A stretch of DNA of 26,488 bases from a virus: IMG/VR virus record IMGVR_UViG_3300042780_000023. The stretch is one strand, 5' to 3'. Below are positions 1 through 25,192 of the stretch, piece by piece (positions within the stretch are counted from its first letter, which is position 1; each line of letters starts with the position of its first letter). Made by a program: the position numbers and the translations under genes. The notes beneath the pieces were generated by a model. The model was not told the origin of the DNA and did not search any database. It saw nothing but the letters and a program-made list of their open reading frames with translations.

Positions 1-94
1 ATATTATATATTATGATCTATGTGATCAGAGAATTAGGTTAGACTAAAAAGTTAATAAACAAATTATTAAGAATTAATAAAAAAGCTAATAATA

Positions 95-910
95 CTACTC
101 AGAGTTGTTAAGCTGGAAATAGCCCTGCACTGGCTTATCTTTGGAGTGAATATAAAGCAGTTTATCATTTACCCTTCTGAAAATAGATGGCTTAGTTTCT
201 TTAAGGACCTCCCAGCTCTCGATAACAGGGATAAAATCCTCCTCTGGGAAGATATCAAATAATGCTTCCCTGATTTCCTTTAAACTAATTGCTTGAAGAC
301 CATTAGCTTTTAATACGTCTTCTACGAATTCAGGTATGCGTTTTTCTAATGCTTTTTCTCTAATTACCTTTTCTACAAGCATAACATGCTCTTCTTTTTC
401 TTCAATGTACTTTTTCAATGCTCTCAATTCTTTCTCTTTTTTAGCTAAATACTCTTCTTTTTCTGCTAACTCTTTTTCTTTCTTATTAATATAGAATTCT
501 CTCGCTTGTAATTCTCTCTGCTTAATAGTGATCTCTTTAAATTTCTCCCGGTATTTGTTGAGCTCAATACCCATTTTGTCGTAATTAGTTATTAAGAAGG
601 TAGTTAAACGCTTGTATTCTGCTAACTGTTTTACTGCTGCTTTATGCTCGACTTCAAACTGTTTTAATTTCGCTAATGTTGTTGTTAGTTCATGCTGATA
701 CTCCTCGAGAAGGAGATCCTTATCAATTGTGTTATTTTGCGATAGAAGATAGTAATGGATTGCTTCATTTATAATTTTGCTTAAACTCATATCTGTTACT
801 GTGGTTAGTTTTTTGAGTGTTTCTTTAATATGTTTCTTCGTGCTGAAGCTAACTACTACAGTTTCATCATCATTAACAGAAAGGTTTATATCCTCATCTA
901 CCCCATCCAT
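95..910 (-). CDS. N-terminal ribbon-helix-helix-like DNA-binding domain plus long coiled coil
   Basis: VVVSFSTKKHIKETLKKLTTVTDMSLSKIINEAIHYYL fits the RHH strand-helix-helix pattern and is followed by an E/K-rich heptad region. Start moved to ATG 910 because of a GGAGG RBS at 918-922. Confidence 0.6.
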   Translation of the reverse strand: MDGVDEDINLSVNDDETVVVSFSTKKHIKETLKKLTTVTDMSLSKIINEAIHYYLLSQNNTIDKDLLLEEYQHELTTTLAKLKQFEVEHKAAVKQLAEYKRLTTFLITNYDKMGIELNKYREKFKEITIKQRELQAREFYINKKEKELAEKEEYLAKKEKELRALKKYIEEKEEHVMLVEKVIREKALEKRIPEFVEDVLKANGLQAISLKEIREALFDIFPEEDFIPVIESWEVLKETKPSIFRRVNDKLLYIHSKDKPVQGYFQLNNSE

Positions 911-980
911 TATAGAGCCTCCTAAATATTCCATCTTTGCCAGCCTCCGTATCGGGATTTTCTATTTTATTTTGTTTTAA

Positions 981-1000
981 GACTATATAAACTTTTTGTT
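981..1000 (-). promoter_or_regulatory. Archaeal BRE/TATA promoter for the RHH gene
   Basis: Minus strand reads aacaaaaagTTTATATAgtc, about 70-80 nt upstream of ATG 910. Confidence 0.55.
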
Positions 1001-1014
1001 GTTTTTAAAGCAAT

Positions 1015-1044
1015 AAAAATGGAAAAGAAGAGGAAAAAAGGGGA
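1015..1044 (-). terminator. Oligo-pyrimidine (T-rich) archaeal terminator
   Basis: Minus strand reads tccccttttttcctcttcttttccattttt, directly after the stop at 1045. Confidence 0.45.
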
Positions 1045-1257
1045 TTACCTCCCCATAAATATTTTAAAACGGTTAGAAGAGGGAGTGTAACGTAAAAGAC
1101 GGTGATAAATCTCCAATGCCTCTCTATTAAGTATTTCTGCCTCCCCGTGCCTAAACCTTCTATTTAGTGCATCCATCTTATGTAAAATCTTCCCCAATCT
1201 AAAAAAATCTTCCCAAAATTCGGGGGGCAAGGGCTTAAGTGTCGGCTCGTCTTTCAT
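1045..1257 (-). CDS. Hypothetical protein
   Basis: ORF in the tightly packed leftward operon. ATG 1257 preferred over TTG 1263. Confidence 0.6.
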   Translation of the reverse strand: MKDEPTLKPLPPEFWEDFFRLGKILHKMDALNRRFRHGEAEILNREALEIYHRLLRYTPSSNRFKIFMGR

Positions 1258-1384
1258 CTTCAATCAACTCCTTTAACTTTTCTTCTAATTCTTCAACCCA
1301 ACCCAGAGCATCGGCGAAGTTCATATTAATACATGCATTTCGCAACATTGTAATTATCTCCTCGAGGGTAAAATCACAACTCAC
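1235..1384 (-). CDS. Small hypothetical protein (about 49 aa)
   Basis: GTG 1384 preceded by GAGGTGG (1391-1397), overlapping the end of the ligase gene. Confidence 0.55.
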   Translation of the reverse strand: MSCDFTLEEIITMLRNACINMNFADALGWVEELEEKLKELIEDERRADT

Positions 1385-2258
1385 TATTAACCACCTCGAG
1401 ATATAGTCTATAAGCAGAGTTTGGTAAGGCTTTCCCATACTCTTCTGTTACTTCTTTTGCGATTTCCTTCATAGCGGTCTTAGGATCAATAAACTCTTTT
1501 TCTGATAAGCGTAGTTTTACCTTATGTATTGCTTCTAAAACCTGCTCATGAGTAGCATAATCTTTATTTCGCTTTTTGCCTTTTTTAGTCTCGTTTTTTA
1601 TCATCTGTCCTTCGTGTGTTGGATAGTTAAAGTGTATCGGCTTAACTTTACACCTGTCGATTATTCTGTAAAGTCCGTCTAAGGCTTTAACGACAAATCC
1701 CTCATAATCTCTTAGCCAAGCCAACTTAGCGAGGTTCTCGAAGAGCTTTTTGGCGATAACGTTATTATAATATAATGATCTGAATTCTACGGATACAAAG
1801 TTAAGATCTTCATAATAGTAAGGTTTAAAGGCTTTTTCTCCAGCATCCCAGAGCTCATAAATAATAAAATTTGCTGGTTGAAACTGAGAGGTATAAGGTG
1901 CTTTAAGCTCTTTTGCTATTAATTCACCTACTAAGTAACTCCTATCTACGTAATCCGTAGAGAATTGGCTTATAGAACACATTAAAGCGTTGTTATTCTC
2001 TAATGCCTGTTTAAATAAGGTAAAAAATCTATTTTCTGCGTTCTGATTTCTCGTTAAAACGTATATTTTATTATTGAATTTTACTAATCGTAAGTTAGTC
2101 CCGTCATATTTCCGTTCGATAAGGATGTATGGAGCTTTCTTTGCTAACTTATCCCAGTTTTTAAGAAACTGTGCTGGGTTTTGTATTTTTGGAAAGGGCT
2201 TTATGTTTGGAGGGATATACTCATTAGAAAAAATAATACCGTCTTTTTCAAATTCCAC
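1374..2258 (-). CDS. ATP-dependent RNA ligase, archaeal Rnl3/Pab1020-like nucleotidyltransferase
   Basis: Motif I ERKYDGTNLRLVKF (cf. Pab1020-family EEKVDGYNVRVVKF), upstream PFPKI, motif Ia TRN, III LVGEL, IIIa FIIYE, IV EGFVVK and V KVK. No OB domain, so not a standard DNA ligase. Confidence 0.8.
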   Translation of the reverse strand: MEFEKDGIIFSNEYIPPNIKPFPKIQNPAQFLKNWDKLAKKAPYILIERKYDGTNLRLVKFNNKIYVLTRNQNAENRFFTLFKQALENNNALMCSISQFSTDYVDRSYLVGELIAKELKAPYTSQFQPANFIIYELWDAGEKAFKPYYYEDLNFVSVEFRSLYYNNVIAKKLFENLAKLAWLRDYEGFVVKALDGLYRIIDRCKVKPIHFNYPTHEGQMIKNETKKGKKRNKDYATHEQVLEAIHKVKLRLSEKEFIDPKTAMKEIAKEVTEEYGKALPNSAYRLYLEVVNSEL

Positions 2259-2454
2259 AGGTATCCCTCCAAAATTCTTTTAGTTTTCTCCTTGCCTTAT
2301 TGGCATAGCTTCTACTGTGCTTGGTCCTTGCGTTTTTGAGAGTTAGACCATAAACCAGCCTTTTAATAGTAGTTTCAGCGTAACCTTTTTCTCTCAAATA
2401 AGAGATAAATGCCTCTTTTTCATCAGCTGAAAGATGGATAGGCTCAAGGATCAT
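2248..2454 (-). CDS. Small protein resembling a tyrosine-integrase N-terminal (core-binding/SAM-like) domain
   Basis: FISYLREKGYAETTIKR matches the F..YL...G.S..T...Y pattern. No catalytic domain. Confidence 0.45.
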   Translation of the reverse strand: MILEPIHLSADEKEAFISYLREKGYAETTIKRLVYGLTLKNARTKHSRSYANKARRKLKEFWRDTCGI

Positions 2455-2816
2455 TCTTCACCCTCCAAAATGTCTGGGTCTTCCTCTGGATCAACTAAAG
2501 TGTAATAAACTAATCCTGCTTTCGTCTTCTTCTTCCAGACTTTAGCTAAAACAGGTTCACTATCATCAAATGCTCCCTTTTCTTTTAGCTTCCTTAATTG
2601 ATCCATTATTACTGCGCTTGAAGTGTTCCAGCAGTAGGAAGTTTTTTCTACATCGTTTGGAAAGTGGAAATAAACGCTAACGTAAGGTTTTCCGCTGTCG
2701 CCTACTCGCTCATGAAACTCTTCTATTGCTATCACTTCGCCTAAGACGGCTATGCTTTTCACTACTTGCCTATCGTCTTTATCACTCTTCTCCAAAAAGT
2801 CGCTTATTTTTTTCAC
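2451..2816 (-). CDS. Putative OB-fold single-stranded nucleic acid binding protein
   Basis: About 120 aa beta-rich pattern with aromatic residues (GKPYVSVYF, VYYTLVD) and an acidic tail (DPEEDPDILEGEE). GGAGGT RBS. Confidence 0.4.
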   Translation of the reverse strand: MKKISDFLEKSDKDDRQVVKSIAVLGEVIAIEEFHERVGDSGKPYVSVYFHFPNDVEKTSYCWNTSSAVIMDQLRKLKEKGAFDDSEPVLAKVWKKKTKAGLVYYTLVDPEEDPDILEGEE

Positions 2817-2858
2817 TTATACCAACCTCCTAATATTATCACGTTACTTATGGATGTT

Positions 2859-2880
2859 CTACCTTATAAGGTTTTGGTTT
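2859..2880 (-). promoter_or_regulatory. Leftward promoter containing the 12-bp palindrome ACCTTATAAGGT
   Basis: Minus strand reads aaaccaaaaccTTATAAggtag, about 45 nt upstream of GTG 2816. Near-identical to 3611-3631. Confidence 0.6.
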
Positions 2881-2916
2881 AAAAGCAAGAATTTTAATAA
2901 GGAAAAATTGTTTAAA

Positions 2917-2936
2917 AAACAAAAACCTTATATAGA
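2917..2936 (+). promoter_or_regulatory. Rightward BRE/TATA promoter
   Basis: aaacaaaaaccTTATATAg. Forms a 15/16 inverted repeat with 2865-2880. Confidence 0.5.
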
Positions 2937-2954
2937 CCTAATACCTACTCCTAC

Positions 2955-2997
2955 TTTTCTTTTTCAAGCCTCGTCCCTTCAGGGCGGGGAGGAGGTC
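2955..2997 (+). mobile_element. Orphan IS200/IS605 (IS1341-type) right-end hairpin, copy 1
   Basis: ttttctttttcaagcctcgtcccttcagggcggggaggaggtc, the typical archaeal tnpB right-end motif. No tnpA/tnpB in the window. Confidence 0.7.
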
Positions 2998-3047
2998 GCC
3001 TGAGGACTTTTTCATTTTTAATATTAAAGAAGAAGGAGGTGTTGGAG

Positions 3048-3362
3048 ATGAAAGAAGGAGTTTCGGGCGCAATTAAGCAGGAGCAGGAGGTAAGGAAGGT
3101 GGTGGACATGGAGGTGGAGAAATTGCTTGAACACTTGTCGAGGATAGGGCTGATGGAAGTGTTCGAGGATGGGAGAATTGTAGTGAAAACAACAGTGTTC
3201 AGTCTTCAGGAGTGGAAAAGATTTGCAGAGGAGCTCGGGCTTGAAATAGTTAACATAGTCGCAGTAGCACTCGGCAACGCAAGAATGAGGATTGAAATCT
3301 GGTTCAAGAAGTCTCAGAATGAGAGCTCGCCCTTCAGGGCGGGGAGGAGGTCAGTCCTCTGA
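3048..3362 (+). CDS. Hypothetical protein whose C-terminus (SSPFRAGRRS) is read through an IS605 right end
   Basis: Strong GGAGGTG RBS, visibly more GC-rich than the flanks. An alternative ATG at 3108 also has an RBS. Confidence 0.65.
   Translation: MKEGVSGAIKQEQEVRKVVDMEVEKLLEHLSRIGLMEVFEDGRIVVKTTVFSLQEWKRFAEELGLEIVNIVAVALGNARMRIEIWFKKSQNESSPFRAGRRSVL
3326..3355 (+). mobile_element. Orphan IS200/IS605 right-end hairpin, copy 2
   Basis: ctcgcccttcagggcggggaggaggtcagt, the exact reverse complement of 19252-19281. Confidence 0.75.
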
Positions 3363-3476
3363 CCTCGCCGACCCTCAACTTTTTGTCTCTACCCTCCTCA
3401 ACAGCTTCTCTCACCTTGATTTACCATTTATATAGAATATGAATATAGTAGCTTCTTCTCTTCCTCTAATGTGATG

Positions 3477-3532
3477 ACCTTATAGTCGTTAGCCTATTCT
3501 ACTTATTAGGATAATTGACTAATACGCAATAC
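3477..3532 (+). repeat. 56-bp repeat, inverted relative to 19299-19354
   Basis: accttatagtcgttagcctattctacttattaggataattgactaatacgcaatac matches the reverse complement of 19299-19354 with one mismatch. Confidence 0.9.
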
Positions 3533-3610
3533 ATTATTTAATCTACCAGAGCATATTCTTCTTTATTTAGTTAGTTTTTGTATTCTATTCTTGTATTCAC
3601 ATATTAATTC

Positions 3611-3631
3611 ACCAAAAACCTTATAAGGTAG
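3611..3631 (+). promoter_or_regulatory. Rightward promoter for the phosphoesterase gene
   Basis: accaaaaaccTTATAAggtag, about 35 nt upstream of GTG 3662. Mirror copy of 2859-2878. Confidence 0.6.
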
Positions 3632-3661
3632 ATTTTAAAACAAATTAGTTGAGGCGATATT

Positions 3662-4870
3662 GTGAAGCCAAGCCTTTTGAAATTGGTAACTATCCTTAAA
3701 GAAAACGGAGGAATACTACAAAGGCAACAACTGCAAAAATTATCTAATTTTAAACCAAATGCGTTTAGGGCTCGACTTTCTGAATTACGAAAGCTTGGCA
3801 TGGTTAGTGTTGAAGACAATAATGTTATATTGCTAAGAGATACCATTGATGAAAATGAAAAGCAAGATACAGAGAACTTAACTAAAAAGTTGCAGGCTCT
3901 TTTAGATGAAGGAATTATTATTGAAAAAGAGAGGGAGGTGGAGGGGAGAAAAGCAACGGTGGTAATAAGCGATATGCACTTTGGAGATGAAAACGTAATG
4001 CTAAACACGTATCGCTCTGCAGTAAATAACTTAATTAAAAAACTAAGAGAATTAGACAAAGAAAAGAAAATAAGCCTGATCAGAATAATCCTTAACGGCG
4101 ATATAGTATCTGGAAGGGGAATTTTTAGATGGCAAGAAGCCCAAAACGTGTTCAATAAAGGCAATATTCAAATATTGTACGCATCGGCTTTTATTTTAGA
4201 GTTACATGAAAAACTAAGCGAAATTGCAGAAACAGAGTATTTTGTTCTGAAGGGTAACCACGACCAGCACAGAAAAGATAACTACGCTTGGGAGCTAACG
4301 GACAAATTAAGAAGTTATGGGCTTAATGCTTTTTACGCAGGACACCAGCTAATAATGAACTTAGGTAATGATAATAAACAGCATTGGGTTCTTATCGAGC
4401 ATGGCTATGGTGGAAGTGATTATTATCCCGTGAGCTACGATTTTTTGAGAAATACATGGAAAAAGATAACTTGGCTTAACAGGTTGCAGAAAGAGAAGAG
4501 AAGGGATGAAATAGAAAGGGTAATAGTAGGTCACTCACACTGGTTAGTAACGAACTTAAGGCAAGATCCCTTCTGGGCTATTGATGTAAGCGGTGGTTTT
4601 CAAAGAAATGAAAGAGTAGAGCTGGGCAAAAATCAAAGACCAGCTGGGTTCTTATTATACGTTTTCGATGAAGAGAAGGACGGTCTAACAATATACGACT
4701 GGAAAAAGGGCTTAAGGCTTTTTGAGATAGTTGCAGATGAAGAAATAATGCTCCATGAGTTATTAGACCCAGCACTTGAACTAAAGAATAGGATGGACGC
4801 TCCAAAAACGCTAATGCAGTTATATAACAAGCTGGTAGAGATGGGATTAATTAAGAAGGAGGTAGGGTAA
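3662..4870 (+). CDS. Calcineurin-like metallophosphoesterase with N-terminal winged-HTH
   Basis: Motifs SDMHFG, NGDIV, GNHD, EHG and GHSH. N-terminus LQRQQLQKLSNFKPNAFRARLSELRKLGMV is wHTH-like. Confidence 0.85.
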   Translation: MKPSLLKLVTILKENGGILQRQQLQKLSNFKPNAFRARLSELRKLGMVSVEDNNVILLRDTIDENEKQDTENLTKKLQALLDEGIIIEKEREVEGRKATVVISDMHFGDENVMLNTYRSAVNNLIKKLRELDKEKKISLIRIILNGDIVSGRGIFRWQEAQNVFNKGNIQILYASAFILELHEKLSEIAETEYFVLKGNHDQHRKDNYAWELTDKLRSYGLNAFYAGHQLIMNLGNDNKQHWVLIEHGYGGSDYYPVSYDFLRNTWKKITWLNRLQKEKRRDEIERVIVGHSHWLVTNLRQDPFWAIDVSGGFQRNERVELGKNQRPAGFLLYVFDEEKDGLTIYDWKKGLRLFEIVADEEIMLHELLDPALELKNRMDAPKTLMQLYNKLVEMGLIKKEVG

Positions 4871-5085
4871 TGTATTATTATCTAACTGCAAAAAAAGATG
4901 ATTTTTTATTGTATTTTATTATACTACTATTAGCAAGTATTCCAGCGGTAACATCGTATCTTTTTTGGCGATGGCTTAACCCAGCAACATTTTATGAAAG
5001 ACTGCTTACGTTTTTAGCAATAGTTTTCATAGTCTATCCAGTTACGTTAGTTATTGAAATTTTATTCTTAGACCTATTAGAGTGA
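4870..5085 (+). CDS. Small membrane protein (2 TM)
   Basis: Two hydrophobic stretches. TAATG stop-start overlap with the upstream gene. Confidence 0.65.
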   Translation: MYYYLTAKKDDFLLYFIILLLASIPAVTSYLFWRWLNPATFYERLLTFLAIVFIVYPVTLVIEILFLDLLE

Positions 5086-5150
5086 TTAAATAATAATTAA
5101 ATCAGCCCTGTTAAAATAAGTTTATTTTATCTCGCAAAGGAGGTATAAAA

Positions 5151-5660
5151 ATGAGTTACCAGCCTGTTTTTTATATAGAGTTAGACGATGTGATTTTTGA
5201 GATAGAAAAGACCCAGATCCAAATAACTGAAAGAGGAACGATACAGAGTAGCGATTTTATATTCCACATTCAAACAAAAGATGATTATATTAAACTATCG
5301 TTCACTACAGAAACAGCTCTTTTCTTTGCAAGATTATTAAACTATGCTGTAGAATTCGCTACGAATACTTTTCTTAATTCCCCTGCTCCAGCGAGGCATT
5401 ATAAACTACTTCTTAAGCACGATAAGATAAGGACCATCACAGTCCAAGCCTTTCCGAGCGATGTTAGAATTATCCTTATTGGCTCTACTGATATGATAGA
5501 GATCCATATGCCACTAATAGATGCAAACTGGTTAAGTGAGGTATTACACTATGAAGCGTTAAGGGAGTATGCTAATTTAAGCGAAACTCAGCAAGTGCTT
5601 TACGATGAAATATGTAAGAAGAAAGAAGAGGATGACATGGAGGGGAGGGAGTTTGGTTAA
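5151..5660 (+). CDS. Hypothetical protein
   Basis: 169-aa ORF with an AGGAGGT RBS. Confidence 0.7.
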   Translation: MSYQPVFYIELDDVIFEIEKTQIQITERGTIQSSDFIFHIQTKDDYIKLSFTTETALFFARLLNYAVEFATNTFLNSPAPARHYKLLLKHDKIRTITVQAFPSDVRIILIGSTDMIEIHMPLIDANWLSEVLHYEALREYANLSETQQVLYDEICKKKEEDDMEGREFG

Positions 5661-6120
5661 GTGTCCTCTCTGTGGTTCTGATAAGCTTTTCTATGATCCT
5701 GCTCGAGGAGAATACTACTGTGGCGAGTGTGGTTACGTTTATGATTATGATGAGATACCATCAAGAGAAAGATTAGCAGAAATTAAAGGAGACATATCAA
5801 TAAATAATTTAAAAATAAATAGTTACAACGAGGATAATACTATTTATGCAGTACATGAGGTCTACAGGTTATCCTCTTGGCTAAGGATGCCAAAGCATAT
5901 GGTTAGGGAAGCAATTAATATATATATTAATATGATATATAAGAATAATCTCCACCGTAAATTAAACATCCCAATCGAGGACATTATTCCAGCATTAATA
6001 ATATTGATCTACAAAAAATATAGTTTAAACTGCAATTATGATGTTTTATTCAAGTATGCTAAATCAGATCCAAATGCTATCCTTTCATCATACTACAAGC
6101 TTTACAACTATATAGAGTAA
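5653..6120 (+). CDS. Truncated transcription factor B (TFB/TFIIB) homolog: Zn ribbon plus one cyclin-like repeat
   Basis: CPLCGSDKLFYDPARGEYYCGECG (C-x2-C-x15-C-x2-C). AVHEVYRLSSWLRMPKHMVREAINIY resembles TFB core repeat 1. TTG 5653 follows a GGAGGG RBS. Confidence 0.75.
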   Translation: MVKCPLCGSDKLFYDPARGEYYCGECGYVYDYDEIPSRERLAEIKGDISINNLKINSYNEDNTIYAVHEVYRLSSWLRMPKHMVREAINIYINMIYKNNLHRKLNIPIEDIIPALIILIYKKYSLNCNYDVLFKYAKSDPNAILSSYYKLYNYIE

Positions 6121-6271
6121 GACCTTATTGCATAATATATATAGGGAGTGTTAAATTTGGGGAGAGGCGGGGATTTACTCCCCCTCTCCACCCCAATGTG
6201 GGATTAATAATTATTACTATTGTCAATAGTTATCATAACTCTTGATGTTTTGCGAAAGAGGAGGCTTTAGA

Positions 6272-7366
6272 ATGGAGATACGAATGATCAAAATTGATGA
6301 ATTGATCCCGTATGTGAATAATCCTAAGAATTTTGTGATTATAGCAGGGCATGGGCGTTATGAAGCGGCTAAACTTTTAGGTTTAGAAGAAGTCCCAGTT
6401 ATTGTTGCGGATGATTTAACCCCGGCACAGGTTAAGGCTTTTAGAATCGCAGACAACAAAGTAGCGGAGAGCGAATGGGATGAACTTTCTCTCCAAGCTG
6501 AATTAGAGCAGTTACTGGAAGAAGGCTACGATCTCGAATTAACAGGTTTTGATGATGAAGAGATAGAGCGACTTTTCAAGGAATTAAGAGAAAATGAAAA
6601 TGTTGATGAAGAAAAGGAAGACGATTTACCAGGCGTTAAAGAAGAATTAGACCCATTTTCAAAAGAAAGAGATGTATGGATCTTAGGTGAGCATCTGGTG
6701 ATGTGTGGCGACAGCACGAAACGAGAAGATGTTGAGAGGTTGATGGGTAAAGAGAAGGCTAATGTTATCCTAACTGATCCACCATACGACTTTGACGATT
6801 TGAGTTGGTTCAATAATGCTCTCTCAATAGCAAATAAGGAGAGTTGCGAAATTTTTGTGATGAATAGCGATAAGTATCTTGTTAAACTTGCATATAACTA
6901 TTTTAATTATTTTAAGTATTTCTTCTCAGTTACACTAAAGCCTGGCATTTTAGTTAATAACAATATGCCAATAACGGCTCATGATTTAATTGCTTACTTC
7001 AGAGTAGGCAAAACAAAGTTCAAAAACCTATATGATGCATTTTCAACAGCTCTCGAAATTAATAAGCGGAAAGATGATATACATAGGCATTTAAAACCTG
7101 TTGCGTTATTTAAAGAGTTTATCATCCATTTTTCTGATGAAGAGGAGATTATTGTTGATCTGTTTGCTGGTTCAGGCACAACCCTAATTGCTTGTGAGGA
7201 AACACGAAGAAAAGCGAGGCTTATGGAACTTGAACCTGCTAATGTTGATCTAATTGTAAAAAGATATATCGATGCTTTTGGTAATGATGACATAAAACTC
7301 ATTAGGGATGGGATGGAAATTCCGTTTTATGAGATTGAAGAGGAGTTTATGGCTCGTTTTGAGTGA
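6272..7366 (+). CDS. ParB/Srx-like N-terminal domain fused to an amino-(N6A/N4C) DNA methyltransferase, beta class
   Basis: IIAGHGRYEAAKLLG (ParB), LTDPPY (motif IV), HLKPV, DLFAGSGTT (motif I). ATG 6272 follows GAGGAGG. Confidence 0.85.
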   Translation: MEIRMIKIDELIPYVNNPKNFVIIAGHGRYEAAKLLGLEEVPVIVADDLTPAQVKAFRIADNKVAESEWDELSLQAELEQLLEEGYDLELTGFDDEEIERLFKELRENENVDEEKEDDLPGVKEELDPFSKERDVWILGEHLVMCGDSTKREDVERLMGKEKANVILTDPPYDFDDLSWFNNALSIANKESCEIFVMNSDKYLVKLAYNYFNYFKYFFSVTLKPGILVNNNMPITAHDLIAYFRVGKTKFKNLYDAFSTALEINKRKDDIHRHLKPVALFKEFIIHFSDEEEIIVDLFAGSGTTLIACEETRRKARLMELEPANVDLIVKRYIDAFGNDDIKLIRDGMEIPFYEIEEEFMARFE

Positions 7367-7827
7367 TACTAATGGAAGCTGAAGTTTTAATTAAACAGAT
7401 GCCTGCAAAGGTTTTAAAAGCTTACGAAATTTGGACTAAAACACACTCTAATAAAAAAACAGCCGAATTAATAGGTGTTAGCGAAAGAACAATAAGCGTT
7501 TGGAAGAAGAAATACCGCTGGGGGGACATAGAGGCGGAAACTTTAGCAAGGATAATAGATGAAGCTAATGATAAAGTGTCTAAAATAAAAGAAGATCAAC
7601 GAAAAATAGTAACTGCCGCTATAGCTTCAGCAATAAAACAATTAAAAGAAGGCAAAATAAAAGCACGCTCTTTTTCAGATTTAGTTACCCTTCTCAAATA
7701 CCAGCTGGAGCTCGAAGGAGAGTTTAAACAGGATGTTAATGTTAATGTGTCACTTTCACTTGCCAGCCTCCACGAAGAATTAGAGAGAAGAAGGAGAGAA
7801 GCTGGGGAGGGGATGAAGGCTGAATAA
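7363..7827 (+). CDS. terS: Terminase small subunit (HTH)
   Basis: HTH KKTAELIGVSERTISVWKKKYRW, a helical region, and position immediately before TerL. Confidence 0.7.
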   Translation: MILMEAEVLIKQMPAKVLKAYEIWTKTHSNKKTAELIGVSERTISVWKKKYRWGDIEAETLARIIDEANDKVSKIKEDQRKIVTAAIASAIKQLKEGKIKARSFSDLVTLLKYQLELEGEFKQDVNVNVSLSLASLHEELERRRREAGEGMKAE

Positions 7828-9184
7828 GGTTGATTTTGTTGATTTATTAGCTCAATGGCAGAAAGATCCTATTCAATTTATTATTGATCTTTTTGGTGAG
7901 AAGCCCGACCCTCTCCAAGCAGATGTGCTAAAGGCGATATCTAAGAATAAGAAAATAGCAGTAAGGAGTGGTCATGGAGTAGGAAAAACTTGGTTAGCAG
8001 CACGAGCAGCAATATGGTTTTTTGTAACTCATCCTCATTCTAAGGTAATAACTACTGCTCCTACTTGGCAACAGGTTAGAAAAGTTTTATGGTCTGAAAT
8101 TCATTCAGCGTTAAGAAAAGTTCCGCCAATTCTTAGAGATAATTTTGATATTTTAGATATGGATATTTATATGAAAGATAAGAATGGAGAGAGAATTCAA
8201 GATTGGTATATTACTGGGAGGAGTAGTGATAGACCAGAAAACATGCAAGGTTTCCACGCTCCTTACTTGTTTTATGTCATCGATGAGGCATCTGGTGTAA
8301 AAGATGAAATTTACGAGGCAATAGAAGGAAGTCAAACCACAGAGGCAAAAATGCTTTTAATAGGCAACCCAACCAAACCAGAAGGATATTTTTATGATGC
8401 TTTTCATAAGAACAGGGAGTTATGGGTTACTTTTCATTTATCCAGTCTTGATAGCCCGAGAGTGAGTAAAGACTGGATTGAAGAGAGAAAGCGAGAATGG
8501 GGGGAGGATAGCGTTTTATATAAGGTTAGAGTGCTCGGTGAATTCCCTGACGTAATAAGTAACGCTTTAATTCCGCTTCATTGGATTGAAAAGGCGATAA
8601 ATGTTGATCTGCATGTTGATAATTTTGATGAAATCAGAATAGGGGTAGATGTTGCGAGGATGGGAGAGGATGAAACAGTAATAACTGTGATAGGGCAAAA
8701 TGGAGAGCATATCAAAGTTATAGATATAATTTCAGCTCAAGGAAAAGAAACAACTTGGACAGCAAGGAGAGTCAAGAGGTTATATGAGAAGTATAACGCT
8801 AAAATAGTAAATGTTGATGATACTGGTGTAGGTGGTGGAGTAACAGACTTATTAAAAGAGGAGGGCGTAAAAGTCAATCCAATTAAGTTTGGAGCATCCC
8901 CTACAAGGGGGGAGGCTAAACTTCTTTTCGCTAACTTAAAAGCCCAAATTTATTATGAGCTAAGAGATTATTTTGATCCTTCTAAAGAGCAGATGATAAG
9001 CATCCCAGACCACCCAAAGTTGATTAGGGATCTTTCAGCGTTAAAACAAGATTACACGAGCAGAGATTTAATAAAAATCATTGATCCACCAAAAAGCCCG
9101 GATTACTCAGATAGTTTAGCTTTAGCGGTTACGAGAGTAGGGAGAAGAGAGGTTTTAAGACCACCAAGCGTTTTTTTGGGGTGA
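7820..9184 (+). CDS. terL: Terminase large subunit
   Basis: Walker A VRSGHGVGKT, Walker B IDEASG, coupling motif IGNP, RNase H-like GVDVARMGEDET and PDYSDSLALA. The frame is open from 7817. The start at CTG 7820 is inferred; the ORF track gives GTG 7925. Confidence 0.9.
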   Translation: MNKVDFVDLLAQWQKDPIQFIIDLFGEKPDPLQADVLKAISKNKKIAVRSGHGVGKTWLAARAAIWFFVTHPHSKVITTAPTWQQVRKVLWSEIHSALRKVPPILRDNFDILDMDIYMKDKNGERIQDWYITGRSSDRPENMQGFHAPYLFYVIDEASGVKDEIYEAIEGSQTTEAKMLLIGNPTKPEGYFYDAFHKNRELWVTFHLSSLDSPRVSKDWIEERKREWGEDSVLYKVRVLGEFPDVISNALIPLHWIEKAINVDLHVDNFDEIRIGVDVARMGEDETVITVIGQNGEHIKVIDIISAQGKETTWTARRVKRLYEKYNAKIVNVDDTGVGGGVTDLLKEEGVKVNPIKFGASPTRGEAKLLFANLKAQIYYELRDYFDPSKEQMISIPDHPKLIRDLSALKQDYTSRDLIKIIDPPKSPDYSDSLALAVTRVGRREVLRPPSVFLG

Positions 9185-9190
9185 TATAGG

Positions 9191-9478
9191 TTGGTAGAAA
9201 CTAAATGGTATGTAGGAACTGTGGGCGTTAAGCTTGTCGTTGAAACAGGACAGGATTTATCTACTGCTTTTCAAGTGAGCGTTTTAGTAAAAAAGCCTGA
9301 TGGGACACAAGAAGAATGGATAGGAACTGCTAACGGCACACAGATAGAGTATATTATTCAAAATGGAGATTTAGACCAAGCTGGAATCTACAGAATTCAA
9401 GCAAAGGTTACTTTTGCGGATGGATCTGTTTGGTATGGACATACAGATGTTTTAGTAATTTATGAGTTATTTGAGTAG
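9191..9478 (+). CDS. Virion structural protein, BppU N-terminal-like Ig fold
   Basis: VKKPDG...GDLDQAGIYRIQAKVTFADG pattern. Confidence 0.5.
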   Translation: MVETKWYVGTVGVKLVVETGQDLSTAFQVSVLVKKPDGTQEEWIGTANGTQIEYIIQNGDLDQAGIYRIQAKVTFADGSVWYGHTDVLVIYELFE

Positions 9479-9491
9479 GGGGTTGATAAAA

Positions 9492-9962
9492 ATGGGTAAA
9501 GAAAAGTTTGGGTTAAAAGGAAAGGTAAAAATACGAATTTTTAAGGCGAAAACAGGCGAAGTTATAGAGGAAGAGTTTGATAATTTGGTAGTGAACGCTG
9601 GAAAAGCAGAAGTAGCTAAATTAATTGGCTCTGGGCTTGGAGGAACAGCATTTGGTTATATAGCGATTGGAACTGGGACTACAGCGGAAGCAGCAACTGA
9701 TACAGCAATGGAGGTAGAATTAAAGAGGAAAGCCGCAACTGTTACAAGCGTTACAAGCAACATTACTAACGACACCGCAAGATTTGAAGCAACATTTAGC
9801 TCTGATGACGGGCTAACTGGAACTTCCGCTGTTACCGAATATGGGTTATTTAACGACCCCACCGCTGGAACTATGCTCAGCAGAGTAGTTCAATCAGCTA
9901 AAAACCTGGACTGGGACGCCGGGGACAGTCTCACCGTCACGTGGGATATTATTGTCAGCTGA
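9492..9962 (+). CDS. Virion protein resembling a tail-collar/fibre attachment domain
   Basis: NLVVNAG...YIAIGTG...ATDT..E.E..RK...TEYGLF pattern. ATG 9492 follows a GGGGGT RBS. Confidence 0.55.
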   Translation: MGKEKFGLKGKVKIRIFKAKTGEVIEEEFDNLVVNAGKAEVAKLIGSGLGGTAFGYIAIGTGTTAEAATDTAMEVELKRKAATVTSVTSNITNDTARFEATFSSDDGLTGTSAVTEYGLFNDPTAGTMLSRVVQSAKNLDWDAGDSLTVTWDIIVS

Positions 9963-9976
9963 TTTTTTTGCTTTTT
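9963..9976 (+). terminator. T-tract terminator candidate
   Basis: tttttttgcttttt directly after the stop at 9962. Confidence 0.35.
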
Positions 9977-10013
9977 ACCTACTAACTAAATTAAGTAAGC
10001 AGGTGAAGTAAAA

Positions 10014-11141
10014 ATGACTTGGCTAACAGGGTGGACGTATAGACGAAGCATCACCATAACGGAGCAAAGCGGGAGTGATTTAACAGATTATCAAGTAAAA
10101 ATAGAATTAAATAGTTCAAACTTTGACTTTTCTAAAGCAAATGCTGATGGTAGCGATATTAGGTTTGCAGCAGAGGATGGGACAACATTATTGCCTTATT
10201 GGATTGAAGAATGGGATAGCGGTAATCAAACAGCAAAGATATGGGTAAAAATTCCAAGTTTGTTAGCAAATTCAAGCATAACGATTTATATGTATTATGG
10301 GAACGAGAACGCAGTAAGTGAGAGTAACGCTGAAGAAGTTTTTGACTTTTACGACGATTTCAACGGCACGGATTTAGACTTTAGCAAGTGGAAGAAAGAA
10401 GGGAACTTAAATTATTCACTATCTAACGGCATGTTAACAATTGAGGAGACAGCGGGAACATGGGGGTTTATACGACCGCTTAAGAATTTTCCATCAAGGA
10501 ACATAGTTTTTGAGGCCTACAGGAAACATAACAGTGGGTCAGAAGTGAATCATTATATACACAATTATGATGCAAACAGGAACATATGGGAGAATAAAAG
10601 CTGGTATAGGGCCGAAACAAGAACCACAGACACTTATGGAATAACCCGTTATACTCAGAGTGACTCTTCACAAACACAGTTATATCGCACATCTTTAGAA
10701 ATTAACATTTTTAGGCTTTACAGCGTTGCGATCGATGACACGAATATTAAATTTTACGTTGATAATGTTTTAAAGTATAGTGAAGCCTGTAGGCTTTCAG
10801 AACTGGACAGGCTTTATTATTCAATATCTTTATGGTACTATGGAAACGGGACTATAGACTGGGTGAGAGTGAGAAAATACGCAGATCCAGAGCCGACTTT
10901 CACGGTTAGTGCTGAGGGAGTCCCTATATCAGGTATAGTAAAGTTGTCAGATGGAACGCCCGTGAGTGGTGCTACTGTAATCTGTATAAGGGAAGACACT
11001 AATACAATAGTTGGAGTTACAACATCGCAAACAGATGGGAGTTATACTGTTTCGGCTGCTGAGGGAGTTAAAAATACCGTTATAGTAATTCCATCTGATG
11101 GCACACAAAATGGAGATATTAAGTGTCATATAGTGCCTTAA
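10014..11141 (+). CDS. DUF2341 / ConA-like adhesin-type protein with C-terminal carboxypeptidase-regulatory-like Ig domain
   Basis: WTYRRSIT...DGSDIRF...LPYWIE...IWVKIP...IYMYYGN (DUF2341), FDFYDDF, and ISGIVK..DGTPVSGATV...TSQTDGSY. Confidence 0.75.
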   Translation: MTWLTGWTYRRSITITEQSGSDLTDYQVKIELNSSNFDFSKANADGSDIRFAAEDGTTLLPYWIEEWDSGNQTAKIWVKIPSLLANSSITIYMYYGNENAVSESNAEEVFDFYDDFNGTDLDFSKWKKEGNLNYSLSNGMLTIEETAGTWGFIRPLKNFPSRNIVFEAYRKHNSGSEVNHYIHNYDANRNIWENKSWYRAETRTTDTYGITRYTQSDSSQTQLYRTSLEINIFRLYSVAIDDTNIKFYVDNVLKYSEACRLSELDRLYYSISLWYYGNGTIDWVRVRKYADPEPTFTVSAEGVPISGIVKLSDGTPVSGATVICIREDTNTIVGVTTSQTDGSYTVSAAEGVKNTVIVIPSDGTQNGDIKCHIVP

Positions 11142-11152: not shown

Positions 11153-12262
11153 ATGACTTATACCCCTCCTTCATCAAACAATGTGGAACTAACTATACAA
11201 ACAAGTTATTCATCACCAGCATCTACAAACGTAGAGCTTATAATAGATTTAGGTGTAGTAACTTACTCTATTACAATAGTAGAAGGAATGACTTTAGTAA
11301 GTTCTCCAGCCAAGCAATTAAGCAGGGTACAACAAATAGCATTAACTTTAACTTTAGCAGAGGATTTACAAAAAGTATTACCTTTGCTTGTATCAAATAC
11401 TGATAATATAACTTTAAACGAGAGCTTATTAAAAAAGGAGTTGGTGAGAAAGCTACTTAGCGAGATTATAACTTTAACTGAAGACTTGGCTAAGCAAGGC
11501 GTTCTTAATTTACCTTTATCAGAGCTTTTGTTTTTGGATGAAGACACTACCACAGCGGGAGACTTCAAGTCCGGCTTAGTTGATAATGTTACACTCGTCG
11601 AAGCGATATTTTATATTAAGCAGTTAAACAGCATTTTGAAAGAGAGCATTAATATAAATGAAGTAACAGCATTCACAAGTTTAATAAATAAAATACTATC
11701 TGATTTAGTAAACTTAATTGAAAATGTAGATTTAAAATCAGGAAGCGGGCAGTATATAGTAGATACATTATCTCTTTCAGAGGAGAGAAGGCTTAATTTA
11801 TTAAGCGCATTAGTAGACAGCGTTGTTTTGCAAGAGCTTTTAACGAAAGTTTATACTGCCTTCATACAAAATATAGAGAACATACATCTGAGCGAAAAGA
11901 CTGAGAGGAGGATTGGTATAAGCTATAGCGAGGCAATAACTCTATTAGATACAATCATAAAAGAATTAAAAATTATACTGTATGACAACATAGCATTAAA
12001 CGAGTTTATTACTTATCATTTAACAGCTTCTCTTTTAACTGAGATAATGTTAAACGAAGCCCAGCAAGGGAGCGCTTACTTAACGGAACAAATCCTCGAC
12101 ACGTTAGGGTTAAGCGATCAAATTGATGTAATCCGTCAATTGCTCACTATTTCCGGCGAGTATAATTTAGTTTCATTGATTTTAACGGCTAAATTGCTTA
12201 ATTCTGATATTGGAGCGATAATAAAGTTATACTCTTTAATTAAAAAAGAGGAGGATATATGA
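11153..12262 (+). CDS. Repetitive virion fibre-like protein
   Basis: Recurring [D/E]x[ILV]x[LI]x[D/E] units about 18-21 aa apart. N-terminal duplicate YTPPSSNNVEL / YSSPASTNVEL. Confidence 0.55.
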   Translation: MTYTPPSSNNVELTIQTSYSSPASTNVELIIDLGVVTYSITIVEGMTLVSSPAKQLSRVQQIALTLTLAEDLQKVLPLLVSNTDNITLNESLLKKELVRKLLSEIITLTEDLAKQGVLNLPLSELLFLDEDTTTAGDFKSGLVDNVTLVEAIFYIKQLNSILKESININEVTAFTSLINKILSDLVNLIENVDLKSGSGQYIVDTLSLSEERRLNLLSALVDSVVLQELLTKVYTAFIQNIENIHLSEKTERRIGISYSEAITLLDTIIKELKIILYDNIALNEFITYHLTASLLTEIMLNEAQQGSAYLTEQILDTLGLSDQIDVIRQLLTISGEYNLVSLILTAKLLNSDIGAIIKLYSLIKKEEDI

Positions 12263-13530
12263 TGAAAATTGATTTAAAAGGTTTATTTAAACAAAAGCAA
12301 GTGCCTAAGCCTCCAGTAGAACTTAGAAAATCAAACTCATCTACTTTGGAATATGCACAATTAACAACAAAAGCATATGCTTTAGATAGAGAGCTCTTAA
12401 TCTTATGTGAGAATGCTTATTTAAGTGAGCCCTTAACCAGAAAGGGAATACTGAAACGAAGCCATGATACTTTTGAGAGATGGATCACAATTATAACAGA
12501 AAACGAAGCAATAGAAGAAGCCTTTTATGAGCTCGAGGATAAAACAGACTTGAAAAATAAATTAATTGACCTGCTTAAAAACGCAATGATCTATGGCGTT
12601 GGTTACTTAGAGATAATCTTTGAAAACGATGATAGAAGAGCTGAGGAAGAGCCTCCTAAAACGCCAATCATAGGGATTGAATTAATAGATCCAAAGACAA
12701 TTTGCCCAGTTTACCAGTCTGATCCTAAAAAAGAAGATTATGGAGAACTGCTTTATTATGAGCAGAGAATAAACGAACTGCCGGGTTATGGGCTCAAAAT
12801 TCATCCAAAACGGATAATTGAATTTAAATACGATACGATAGGCGATGGAAAGAGACCAATCGGTGTTATAGAACCGATGCTTTATGTTATTGAAGCCAAA
12901 ATAACGCTAGATAAAGCGTCTGGAAAAATACCCAAAAAAGTGATCTCTCAGATTATAACTGCTACTTTAAAAGGTGATGGTGTTACTCAGCAACTATTAG
13001 ATGAATGGGCAAAGGCTTTTGCGAAAATGGAAGATGTAGGTCGTTTCGTTACTCCCGAAATGGTAGAAGTGGATATTAAAGAGGGAGGAAAGGCTTTAGA
13101 TATTAAGCCTTATTCAGAGCATTTAATCTATCAGATAGCTGGAGGAGTAGGAGTTCCTTATACCGTTTTGCTTGGATCAGGGCACGGAACATTAAGCACA
13201 GCTGAAACTAATTTAAGAGATTATTATAGTGATCTAAAAGACCTTCAAGTAAGATTTACACCGATAATTACGAGATTACTGGACTGGGAGCTTGAAGCGA
13301 GAGGAATTAGCGGAGATTATGATATCGTATGGAACGAGATTTACGCTGATGAAAAGAGCGAAGCAGAGGTTTTAGCTACAAAAGCGAAGGCAATAGACCT
13401 TCTTCTTATGAGCGGAGTTATAAGCGTTAATGAAGCAAGAGAATATCTTAACCTGCCCCCTTTGGAAGAAGAGGAATTGATGGAGAGATACGGCACACCA
13501 GTCAAAAGAGGTAGGTATGCTCATGGCTAA
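12259..13530 (+). CDS. Portal protein
   Basis: 423 aa. Helical N-terminus, IHPKRIIEF, IAGGVGVPYTVLLG, and LLMSGVISVNEAREYLNLPP C-terminus. Position before the MuF gene. Confidence 0.85.
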   Translation: MMKIDLKGLFKQKQVPKPPVELRKSNSSTLEYAQLTTKAYALDRELLILCENAYLSEPLTRKGILKRSHDTFERWITIITENEAIEEAFYELEDKTDLKNKLIDLLKNAMIYGVGYLEIIFENDDRRAEEEPPKTPIIGIELIDPKTICPVYQSDPKKEDYGELLYYEQRINELPGYGLKIHPKRIIEFKYDTIGDGKRPIGVIEPMLYVIEAKITLDKASGKIPKKVISQIITATLKGDGVTQQLLDEWAKAFAKMEDVGRFVTPEMVEVDIKEGGKALDIKPYSEHLIYQIAGGVGVPYTVLLGSGHGTLSTAETNLRDYYSDLKDLQVRFTPIITRLLDWELEARGISGDYDIVWNEIYADEKSEAEVLATKAKAIDLLLMSGVISVNEAREYLNLPPLEEEELMERYGTPVKRGRYAHG

Positions 13531-14272
13531 GCCTGATCTCGATATTCTGTTTAAAGTTGTAGATGATCTACTGTATAATATGCTCGAGGCGACTAAGGAA
13601 GGTAGTATTAAGTATATAGAAGAAGCGTATAAGAAAGGGCTCGATAAAGCTAACTCAGATCTCAAAAAATATGGTTGGACTTTTGATATTCCTCCGGATC
13701 CTCACAGCATTGAATTTTTAGAGCAATACACTTTTGATCTGATTACAGGCGTAGGAGAGGATGTAAGAAAGGAAATACGGAGAGTGGTTAGGCAGGGAAT
13801 TTTAGACGGTAAAAGTATGCAAAAAGTAGCGAAAGAGTTGAGAGATGTAGGTTTTACAAGAAAGAAATGGCGATTAAACACTATCGCAAGAACTGAGGTA
13901 ATGAGAGCAAGTAATTATGGAAGGTTAGAGGGGTATAAAAAAAGCGGAGTAGTGAAATACAAACAATGGCTTACTGCTTTTGATGATAGGACTTGCCCAG
14001 AATGTGAGGCGATGAATGGAGAAATAGCGGAGATAGATAAGCCTTTTTCGTCTGGAGAACAAGCTCCTCCTCTTCATCCTAATTGTAGATGCACGATTGT
14101 TCCAGTTTTTGAAAAAAAGGAATTAAGACGGCATTATCATTTTGGTAGAAAGGGGGAGTTAAACGTCAAGAGGATAGAGGCAAAATTTGCGAGACATCTT
14201 CAAAATAGCTTTAAAGAGATTATTAAGGCAGTTATAGAGCTAATAAGCCAATATTGGGGTGTTTTAGCTTGA
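13517..14272 (+). CDS. Mu gpF / SPP1 gp7-like minor head protein
   Basis: IARTEVMRASN, KQWLTAFDDRTCPEC, PPLHPNCRC. Confidence 0.9.
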   Translation: MLMAKPDLDILFKVVDDLLYNMLEATKEGSIKYIEEAYKKGLDKANSDLKKYGWTFDIPPDPHSIEFLEQYTFDLITGVGEDVRKEIRRVVRQGILDGKSMQKVAKELRDVGFTRKKWRLNTIARTEVMRASNYGRLEGYKKSGVVKYKQWLTAFDDRTCPECEAMNGEIAEIDKPFSSGEQAPPLHPNCRCTIVPVFEKKELRRHYHFGRKGELNVKRIEAKFARHLQNSFKEIIKAVIELISQYWGVLA

Positions 14273-14595
14273 CTGGCATCGAATTAATTGGGTTTAAATC
14301 ACTTAATAAGAAGCTACAGCAGTTAGAAGAGCTGGATAAAAAAATAGAGATAATAGCTTTAATGGTTGAAAAAGAGGCAAAGGAACTTTGTCCCGTTAGA
14401 ACTGGTCGTTTAAGGGCGTCTATCCATGCTGGAAAAGAAAACAAATATACTCATTATGTAGGCACGAATGTAGAATATGCTCCTTTTGTCGAGTTTGGAA
14501 CGAGAAAAATGAGAGCACAGCCGTATTTACGCCCTGCAGTTAAAAAGGTAGTTAATTATGTGAAACAACAAGGAATAAGCTGGTGGATAGATTGA
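14269..14595 (+). CDS. HK97 gp10-like neck/tail completion protein
   Basis: CPVRTGRLRASI and YAPFVEFGTRKMRAQPYLRPA. TTG 14269 overlaps the upstream TGA. Confidence 0.8.
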   Translation: MTGIELIGFKSLNKKLQQLEELDKKIEIIALMVEKEAKELCPVRTGRLRASIHAGKENKYTHYVGTNVEYAPFVEFGTRKMRAQPYLRPAVKKVVNYVKQQGISWWID

Positions 14596-19211: not shown

Positions 19212-19251
19212 CAAAATCCAAACTGTTTTTATAAAACAATTATGTAAAAGC

Positions 19252-19298
19252 ACTGACCTCCTCCCCGCCCTGAAGGGCGAGGCTTTCAAAAGAAAAAG
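19252..19298 (-). mobile_element. Orphan IS200/IS605 right-end hairpin, copy 3
   Basis: Minus strand reads ctttttcttttgaaagcctcgcccttcagggcggggaggaggtcagt. Confidence 0.75.
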
Positions 19299-24763: not shown

Positions 24764-24794
24764 TATTCTCTTTCAAAACTATTCTCTTTCAAAA
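24763..24794. repeat. 16-bp perfect tandem duplication
   Basis: ctattctctttcaaaa x2. Confidence 0.9.
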
Positions 24795-25183: not shown

Positions 25184-25192
25184 ATGTCTTCT

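Follow-up and report, generated by a model that had tools for sequence, protein, structure and literature searches.

A 26.5-kb stretch of viral DNA (IMG/VR record IMGVR_UViG_3300042780_000023; the whole stretch is called the window below) encodes, at the point where its leftward and rightward genes diverge, two enzymes that appear to form a conserved pair: an ATP-dependent polynucleotide ligase of the RNA-ligase clade, and a protein in which, as judged from sequence and predicted fold, a winged helix-turn-helix (wHTH) DNA-binding domain is fused to a metallophosphoesterase (MPE) specifically related to DP1, the small subunit of archaeal polymerase PolD, and for which nuclease activity is predicted. 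We tentatively favor a reading, stopping just short of calling it probable, in which the pair carries out DNA or RNA-DNA end-trimming and nick-sealing during viral replication, recombination or repair. The MPE and the ligase form the conserved enzymatic core of the early region in a small clade of siphovirus-like viruses associated with Archaeoglobus, and the genome of the virus is their most likely target. An earlier, sequence-only reading of the same DNA had proposed an RNA-repair system; its frame of end-processing plus sealing remains reasonable, whereas a tRNA or other RNA substrate is disfavored by the DP1-like character of the MPE and by the DNA-metabolism genes that neighbor the pair in related viruses.

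Both open reading frames (ORFs) lie where the sequence-only reading had placed them, and both exceed the cut-offs of their Pfam families, PF09414 for the ligase and PF00149 for the MPE (Table 1). Within the ligase, residues K50-x-D-G-x-N55, T69-R70, E112, E135, E186-G-F-V-V-K191 and K204-x-K206 are invariant in 33 relatives and supply all of motifs I, Ia, III, IIIa, IV and V of the covalent nucleotidyltransferases (NTases), and PF09414 is matched by 33/33 aligned family members. The family is small, with 11 close homologues among 5.8 billion proteins and 28 matches when 1.8 billion representatives were searched exhaustively with a profile. Neither the ligase nor the MPE found a match by tblastn in 50,697 GenBank phage records, and single-sequence searches of the two proteins against PDB sequences returned nothing useful. 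The AlphaFold2 model of the ligase (predicted local distance difference test, pLDDT, 89.5) is built from an NTase domain (residues 1-217) and a module of four helices (232-294), joined by a flexible linker rich in lysine.

Comparisons of fold and profile place the NTase domain among the RNA ligases. In a VIA-align search, which is independent of Foldseek, the domain resembles NgrRnl (Rnl5; Z 13.8), T4 Rnl2 (12.2), T4 Rnl1 (11.7) and MthRnl (Rnl3; 11.5), while the best DNA ligase, that of T4, reaches Z 10.5 and Pnkp ligase chains Z 7.5-8.7; the top Foldseek match is full-length T4 Rnl2 (7e-7). When the ligase profile is run against the PDB, the Rnl3-type entries 8uce, 3qwu and 2vug lead (1.6e-14 to 2.2e-13), followed by NgrRnl (2e-12), T4 Rnl2 (2e-11) and MthRnl (1e-9), with the best DNA ligase at 3.6e-6. 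Identification as an ATP-dependent DNA ligase was accordingly rejected, DNA ligases ranking below RNA ligases by both profile and VIA-align. Similarly, in an Archaeoglobus metagenome-assembled genome (MAG), the best non-viral match to the ligase profile is the organism's own Rnl3 (1.9e-11; TIGR01209 490.5 bits), its 558-aa DNA ligase matching at 3.7e-5, and in pairwise alignment the N-terminus of the viral ligase aligns with host Rnl3 from Rnl3 residue 49 onward.

The sequence-only reading had called the ligase Rnl3/Pab1020-like, which holds for ancestry, given its place in the RNA-ligase clade with Rnl3 as nearest cellular relative, and fails for membership. The viral protein shares with Rnl3 (Pab1020, MthRnl, the Palaeococcus pacificus ligase) the motif I context E-K-x-D-G-x-N-x-R and the F-P-K-[IV] segment upstream of it; however, Rnl3 enzymes are ~380 aa long, and the 294-aa viral ligase is without the first ~48 residues of their N-terminal domain and without their dimerization and C-terminal domains, in place of which stands a 60-aa helical module. 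A true Rnl3 was thus rejected: TIGR01209 is matched at 18.3 bits against a cut-off of 136.9, over residues 19-71 only, and the flanking domains are absent. Rnl5 was rejected as well, since there are ~45 residues ahead of motif I, NgrRnl is aligned only from its residue 132, the signature N-terminal domain of Rnl5 is absent and a C-terminal module is present. A DNA ligase of the PF01068 type with an oligonucleotide/oligosaccharide-binding (OB) domain was discarded on a score of 21.5 bits against a cut-off of 26.2 and on a C-terminus that is helical rather than an OB fold. Rnl1 and Rnl4 are not alike to the viral ligase. In its layout, an NTase with a small helical C-domain, the viral protein resembles Rnl2: the alignment of hidden Markov models reaches Rnl2 residue 300, while VIA-align aligns the NTase domains only and does not superpose the C-domains, and the viral C-module has no Pfam match to T4_Rnl2_C, for which the protein-language-model Atlas gives a lead (0.90) with few shared features. 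In our reading, the ligase is a minimal branch of its own within the RNA-ligase clade, outside each of Rnl1-5.

The C-module itself is conserved, F256 and E273 being invariant and K246, M263, K276 and Y286 nearly so in the 33 relatives, and therefore presumably matters for function. Searched by itself, it matches no PDB sequence at E<=10 and gives nothing above noise in Pfam; a weak fold lead points to YqeY, GatB-tail and GlnRS N-terminal domains (Z 6.4-6.8, root-mean-square deviation, rmsd, 1.9-2.3 Å over 54-58 residues), which may reflect a common helical arrangement.

The sequence-only reading likened the MPE to the healing domain of Pnkp; profile, fold and MAG searches all point instead to a wHTH domain fused to a DP1 relative. 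Among PHROGs the protein matches phrog_284 ('exonuclease', 3e-11) and phrog_7339, the nearest families being named 'exonuclease' and 'DNA repair exonuclease', and in NCBIfam it matches the PolD small subunit (1e-7). Its AlphaFold2 model (pLDDT 89) comprises a winged helix (residues 1-60), a linker helix and the MPE domain. The winged helix superposes by VIA-align on MarR-type regulators and on a Z-alpha domain (Z ~10, rmsd 1.1-2.1 Å, ~60 residues), and MPE relatives carry HTH_24, MarR_2, HTH_23/28, Terminase_5 or Sigma70_r4 domains at the same position. In the catalytic domain the metal-binding residues D104-x-H106, G146-D147, G198-N-H200, H247 and G-H291-x-H293 are kept in 31 relatives. DP1 is the top fold match, at Z 17.0-17.8 against 14.5 for the next, in both a Foldseek-based and a Foldseek-independent VIA-align search; eukaryotic polymerase B subunits also appear, and Mre11 chains reach Z 11.4-12.9. 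Consistent with this, a profile of the 31 relatives run against the whole PDB finds PolD small subunits only (8e-7 to 8e-6), and the best non-viral MPE match in the Archaeoglobus MAG is that organism's own DP1 (6e-11; NF003118 613 bits), the next match having an E-value of 0.26. The two share the motif II stretch GD-V-x-G-x-G-I-[FY]-x-x-Q, the viral N-G-D-I-V-S-G-R-G-I-F-x-x-Q corresponding to A-G-D-V-V-D-G-I-G-I-Y-x-x-Q in DP1.

DP1 is the archaeal 3'-5' proofreading exonuclease and the ancestor of the eukaryotic B subunits, and its metal motifs are shared and intact in the viral MPE. The two differ in that identity is ~17-19%, the MPE scores 31.3 bits against a DP1 equivalog cut-off of 445, and the OB fold that lies N-terminal of the phosphodiesterase domain in DP1 is absent from the MPE model, where the wHTH domain stands instead; no gene for the DP2 partner was found in the window. 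Mre11/SbcD shares the superfamily and a GNHD-type motif III and ranks clearly below DP1, and no Rad50/SbcC-type (ABC/SMC) ATPase partner was found among the window ORFs. Lambda-phosphatase and Pnkp phosphatase chains are missing from the best 50 rows of either MPE VIA-align search, which is no proof of difference, and PPP-like rows among those 50 reach only ~Z 10.

As systems, Pnkp-Hen1 and T4 Pnk-Rnl1 likewise combine a phosphoesterase with an ATP-dependent ligase, and the Pnkp phosphatase is an MPE-superfamily enzyme like the viral one (PMC3675462). In contrast to these, the viral MPE falls into the branch of DP1, not that of the lambda phosphatases, and has a DNA-binding domain attached, and the viral pair has neither a kinase module nor Hen1 and sits in a DNA-metabolism gene context. 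The concept is shared by bacterial LigD, which joins a 3'-phosphoesterase to a ligase preferring a 3' ribonucleotide and so couples 3'-end trimming or healing to ATP-dependent sealing in the repair of DNA breaks with ribonucleotide-tipped ends. The folds, however, are unrelated: the LigD phosphoesterase domain is not an MPE, its ligase is of the PF01068 plus OB type, and the viral pair is without a polymerase module or Ku.

The two genes are arranged about a pair of near-identical mirror-image promoters, as the sequence-only reading had noticed. An 18-mer, AAAACCTTATAAGGTAGA, occurs exactly at 3615-3632 on the plus strand and as its reverse complement at 2858-2875; the core of this 18-mer, ACCTTATAAGGT, is a palindrome, and the arms of the inverted repeat reach 25 nt with 88% complementarity. 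As would be expected of archaeal promoters composed of a TFB-recognition element (BRE) and a TATA box, each putative element lies ahead of a GTG start with GAGG or GGAGG (Table 1). The leftward copy directly precedes a 121-aa gene, and the ligase is the third gene of a unit of overlapping 121-aa, 68-aa and ligase ORFs; the rightward copy heads a string of genes that begins with the MPE and continues through the structural genes. In relatives the promoters stand back to back, their two TATA-like boxes forming an inverted repeat within ~100 bp, and this predicted bidirectional promoter is conserved across them. In the window the two copies are 725 nt apart because of a strain-variable insertion, which is described below.

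Conservation of the pair was assessed by tblastn over loci fetched from relatives (numbered with an L here), which sample six related virus lineages. Both genes are kept in 6/6 lineages, usually as a divergent pair on the bidirectional promoter, while genes for MCM, PCNA, a Cas4-like nuclease and DUF6876 come and go; since the two do co-occur in related viruses, the pairing proposed from the sequence alone stands. Specifically, the MPE divergently adjoins the ligase operon in the window, L002, L001/L008, L004 (frameshifted), L005 and L010-L013, and in the MCM-bearing lineage (L009/L003/L020) a single 27-kb contig carries both, with ~10 kb between MPE and ligase. In L004, both the MPE (1780-2895) and PCNA (3363-4033) are split over frames, through sequencing frameshifts or decay of the genes. 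The ligase operon includes PCNA and a Cas4-like nuclease in L004, a Cas4-like nuclease in L001, and MCM with a Cas4-like nuclease in L009, and a distant ligase relative (L015) is accompanied by Cas4-like and ERCC4 nucleases. Other distant ligase relatives are less telling: P0050 lies within a long run of unnamed small ORFs, and the contigs of P0045 and P0049 are short. A predicted complex of MPE and ligase scored 0.15 and 0.24 (alignments A2 and A3) against a mark of 0.32, and gives no verdict either way.

Beyond the close relatives, one distant MPE gene lies 111 bp upstream of a gene for an 803-aa protein with a PF01068 DNA-ligase domain, which suggests that an MPE-type nuclease can partner a DNA-type ligase. 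Other distant MPE relatives are found near a PolB and a portal gene, and near a ribonucleotide reductase and a PF01068 protein. Viruses with distant MPE relatives (L016 at 7980-10391, L007 at 12209-14359, and large IMG/VR viruses) also encode very long proteins, in frames of 582 to ~1600 aa, whose only recognizable part is a PF01068 adenylation domain near the C-terminus; in L007 a small PHP-domain protein precedes the PF01068 protein.

The analysis shows that both genes are present with their catalytic motifs intact, how they are related in family and fold, that the pairing is conserved and which genes adjoin them in relatives. How the two enzymes might work together can be outlined as follows, the substrates, the order of action and whether both enzymes meet on one molecule being what we infer from these relationships. 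A single bidirectional BRE/TATA promoter would fire both units, and both enzymes would therefore be made together early in infection. The MPE, brought to DNA by its winged helix, would act as a metal-dependent 3'-5' exonuclease or phosphodiesterase, trimming mismatched, blocked or ribonucleotide-bearing 3' ends. The ligase, a putative trimmed derivative of an archaeal Rnl3-type nucleotidyltransferase with a 60-aa helical module of its own, would be adenylylated with ATP at K50 and would seal breaks with 3'-OH and 5'-phosphate ends; as for Rnl2 and Rnl5 enzymes, the residue that bears the 3'-OH may be a ribonucleotide. DNA is favored over RNA as the substrate because of the DP1 ancestry of the MPE, the fusions to DNA-binding domains, the replication and recombination genes nearby, the DNA-type ligase as an alternative partner and the lack of a kinase. 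These outweigh the lone argument on the RNA side, the clade of the ligase; that clade includes nick-sealing enzymes that work on RNA-tipped DNA (PMC5397189; PMC4408790); one Rnl5 member, DraRnl, contributes to genome reassembly after irradiation (PMC5397189).

Several points weigh against assigning the pair to the viral genome. Firstly, the ligase ranks with RNA ligases and above all DNA ligases in both sequence and fold, and has no OB domain. Known Rnl3 enzymes, moreover, work on single-stranded RNA. Secondly, the gene neighborhood is only suggestive, because viral early regions mix replication with anti-defense genes, and the window virus itself is without MCM, PCNA or Cas4-like genes. Thirdly, the conserved pairing is weak evidence of coupling, since the close loci all come from a single family of syntenic viruses, and may reflect shared ancestry rather than a functional link. 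Additionally, a likeness to DP1 is compatible with RNA ends, because several MPE clades also hydrolyze 2',3'-cyclic phosphates. Among the distant relatives, finally, the separation of MPE relative and PF01068 ligase in large (100-kb) viruses is 16-23 kb, which was not counted as linkage, and in one complete 80-kb virus with an MPE relative no PF01068 ligase was found.

A more specific form of the proposal, possible although rather unlikely, is that the pair is a new kind of viral module, composed of an OB-less DP1 with a sequence-reading winged helix and a monomer-sized, trimmed Rnl3 that has gained a new helical module, and that at very high temperature the two jointly trim and join DNA ends that are damaged or tipped with RNA. 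The two might then be the only replication enzymes that polymerase-less viruses need, or the DP1 copy might plug into host PolD; alternatively, the module would be a kinase-independent RNA-repair route with a DP1-type healing enzyme.

Repair of RNA, as the sequence-only reading proposed, is unlikely. Here the RNA would have been broken by anticodon nucleases of the host, by toxins or by HEPN RNases associated with CRISPR; the MPE would remove 2',3'-cyclic or 3'-phosphates from it, a host kinase would phosphorylate the 5'-OH and the viral ligase would reseal the break. Such a role would suit the place of the ligase in the RNA-ligase clade, with host Rnl3 as its nearest cellular relative, and the viral structure library, where the top named ligase matches are all RNA ligases, the first being a 270-aa Sulfolobus rudivirus protein. 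The conserved pairing would fit as well, as would a very distant ligase relative that has RlaP and HD genes at a distance of 6-8 kb. No more than a lead is the weak fold resemblance of the C-module to tRNA-binding domains, namely the GatB/YqeY tail and the N-terminal domain of GlnRS. In Pnkp, RNA ends are indeed healed by MPE phosphatases (PMC2190708, PMC3675462). Against this, the MPE resembles DP1 specifically, PPP/lambda-phosphatase-like chains reaching only ~Z 10, and it comes as a fusion with DNA-binding domains; the neighbors of the ligase in relatives encode DNA enzymes. No polynucleotide kinase, Hen1 or tRNA gene was found in the window by family scans of its ORFs and by motif and tRNA checks, the sole [AG]xxxxGK[ST] match lying inside the methylase ORF; the earlier remark that the window has no recognizable 5'-OH kinase is thus borne out, no kinase family appearing in the scanned ORFs, and a host kinase is possible. 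Archaeal hosts, however, carry RtcB, which joins 2',3'-cyclic-phosphate termini to 5'-OH termini directly.

It is also improbable that the two proteins do unrelated jobs and are adjacent only because both adjoin the bidirectional early promoter of the genome, the ligase acting on RNA (for example, circularizing or joining RNAs of the virus or the host, in the manner of cellular Rnl3) and the wHTH-MPE serving as a nuclease on DNA or regulating the palindromic promoter. Since the promoter pair marks the divergence of all leftward and rightward genes, any first genes would look paired. In keeping with separate functions, 10 kb separate the two genes in the MCM lineage, the ligase family is far narrower than that of the MPE, whose members mostly occur without a PF09414 ligase, and the palindromic core would suit a dimeric wHTH protein. 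Retention of both genes in 6/6 lineages while MCM, PCNA and Cas4-like genes vary speaks against it, as does the distant MPE relative that again adjoins a ligase-domain gene, of another family. Very improbable is a role as replication entry point, with a wHTH-DP1-like origin-binding nuclease that nicks or processes the origin for the ligase to reseal, or a DP1 mimic that docks on host DP2 and redirects the replicase: the pair is kept although family scans of the window recognized no initiator, helicase, primase or polymerase, the DP1 homology is specific and accompanied by a DNA-binding domain of sequence-specific type, and the MPE gene lies at the turning point of GC skew beside palindromes, but the MPE has no DP1 OB-fold domain and scores 31 bits against the equivalog cut-off of 445, and the skew switch coincides with the switch of coding strand.

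Viruses of the Archaeoglobi are almost unknown, and the papers searched contain no account of a DP1-like nuclease encoded by a virus, nor of a ligase of this minimal type. Both folds are already known, as is the pairing of a nuclease or phosphoesterase with a ligase as a theme; new, as far as these searches reach, are a stand-alone viral wHTH-DP1-like nuclease and a ligase trimmed down from Rnl3 that has a C-module of its own. Should the pair act on DNA or RNA-DNA junctions, an enzyme of the RNA-ligase clade would have been recruited to viral genome maintenance, and a proofreading subunit of a replicase would persist as a stand-alone, DNA-targeted nuclease, which bears on the evolution of DP1 and of the eukaryotic B subunits. 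Should it repair RNA, it would represent an RNA-repair route with a new kind of healing enzyme. On the practical side, a 294-aa ligase from the virus of a hyperthermophile is a candidate tool enzyme, because published work on thermophilic-virus ligases covers Rnl1-type enzymes only (PMC10423840).

Table 1. Features of the divergent ligase and metallophosphoesterase units, with positions in the window
Feature	Position	Strand	Remarks
ATP-dependent polynucleotide ligase, 294 aa, RNA-ligase clade	1374-2258	-	PF09414 RNA_ligase 37.8 bits, cut-off 27
Ligase C-terminal helical module (residues 232-294)	1377-1565	-	four helices, pLDDT ~90
Ligase nucleotidyltransferase domain (residues 1-217)	1608-2258	-	by VIA-align and PDB profile
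68-aa ORF, second leftward gene	2248-2454	-	same-position homologues in L001, L002, L004
121-aa ORF, first leftward gene	2451-2816	-	conserved
Leftward BRE/TATA-like element	2858-2882	-	42-66 nt ahead of GTG at 2816, GGAGG in between
Strain-variable insertion	2927-3556		holds ORF 3039-3362 (+); repeats D7, I1-I3
Rightward BRE/TATA-like element	3608-3632	+	30-54 nt ahead of GTG at 3662, GAGG at 3651-3654
wHTH + DP1-like metallophosphoesterase, 402 aa, first rightward gene	3662-4870	+	PF00149 30 bits, cut-off 21.5
N-terminal winged-helix (MarR/HTH_24-like) domain (residues 1-60)	3662-3841	+	weak HTH_24 match, E 0.0011
MPE catalytic domain (residues 96-357)	3947-4732	+	all metal-binding motifs
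71-aa ORF directly 3' of MPE	4870-5085	+	homologues follow MPE in L001, L002, L004, L010-L013

The small genes that accompany the two enzymes are also shared among relatives. The 121-aa gene comes first in the ligase operon of every lineage, with 64-75% identical homologues in L001, L002, L004, L005 and L010-L013; the protein has no match in Pfam, PHROG or NCBIfam, and in the Atlas it falls among unnamed viral clusters only, the one lead being a cluster in which 13% of members belong to the phi29 single-stranded DNA-binding protein (SSB) family. The 68-aa ORF overlaps both of its neighbors, which suggests translational coupling, and neither it nor the 71-aa ORF that follows the MPE has a family match in library scans. 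A regular expression for the PCNA-interacting PIP box found no conserved match in the ligase, MPE or 121-aa families.

The insertion between the two promoter elements, 630 nt long, encodes its 107-aa ORF between exact 23-nt direct repeats (2975-2997 and 3330-3352), with a possible GC hairpin, and a third, weaker promoter-like copy (2922-2939, plus strand) lies just upstream. In the relative L010, a 72% homologue of the 107-aa product is found elsewhere (6442-6666). Two public runs, X6 and X8 (small oligo-dT 'RNA-Seq' libraries with a single-organism label), contain contigs of a 95-99% identical strain in which position 2926 is joined to 3557 through 136 other letters. Within window positions 1-8000, these contigs span the ligase operon and the MPE; they are no proof of transcription, and the libraries may contain DNA. 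The stretch 2927-3556 looks like a mobile cassette inserted in the bidirectional promoter. The repeat units that flank the insertion (2954-2997, 3326-3363 and 3477-3538) have inverted copies (80-95% complementary) 16 kb away at 19244-19354, in the gap that separates the gene for the tail tube from the tail gene after it; these may represent a small mobile element of the miniature type or a hairpin, shared by the two sites, that resembles a terminator.

By gene content the window reads as a tailed archaeal virus of siphovirus-like type, with genes for a small and a large terminase subunit, portal, Mu-F-like protein, HK97-type capsid, tail tube and tape measure. The structural genes, the methylase and a TFIIB zinc-ribbon gene lie on the plus strand from 3662 to ~24240, flanked by short leftward genes at 95-2816 and 24419-26331, and the G+C content is ~37%. 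The likely host is a relative of Archaeoglobus, because the close protein relatives come from metagenomes and from Archaeoglobus sp. MAG contigs. One such assembly, GB_MAG2_100, includes three contigs (L011, L012 and L013) that each carry an MPE-ligase module, the proteins of which are ~56% and 65% identical to those of the window; the three may be several related viruses or proviruses, or viral contigs binned with the host.

Methyltransferases are represented in the window by a single gene, for a ParB_N plus N6_N4 DNA methylase (6242-7366). Kept in all relatives directly ahead of the methylase and terminase genes is a gene for a 171-aa protein (5605-6120) with a TFIIB-type zinc ribbon (PF08271, 2.7e-11), half a TFB in length, which is a candidate viral transcription factor. 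Among the leftward genes at the right end (24731-25809), an exact 50-nt repeat has copies 342 nt apart, an exact 21-nt repeat has copies 213 nt apart and a 31-nt block occurs three times at ribosome-binding-site positions, suggesting a cassette-like array of small early genes.

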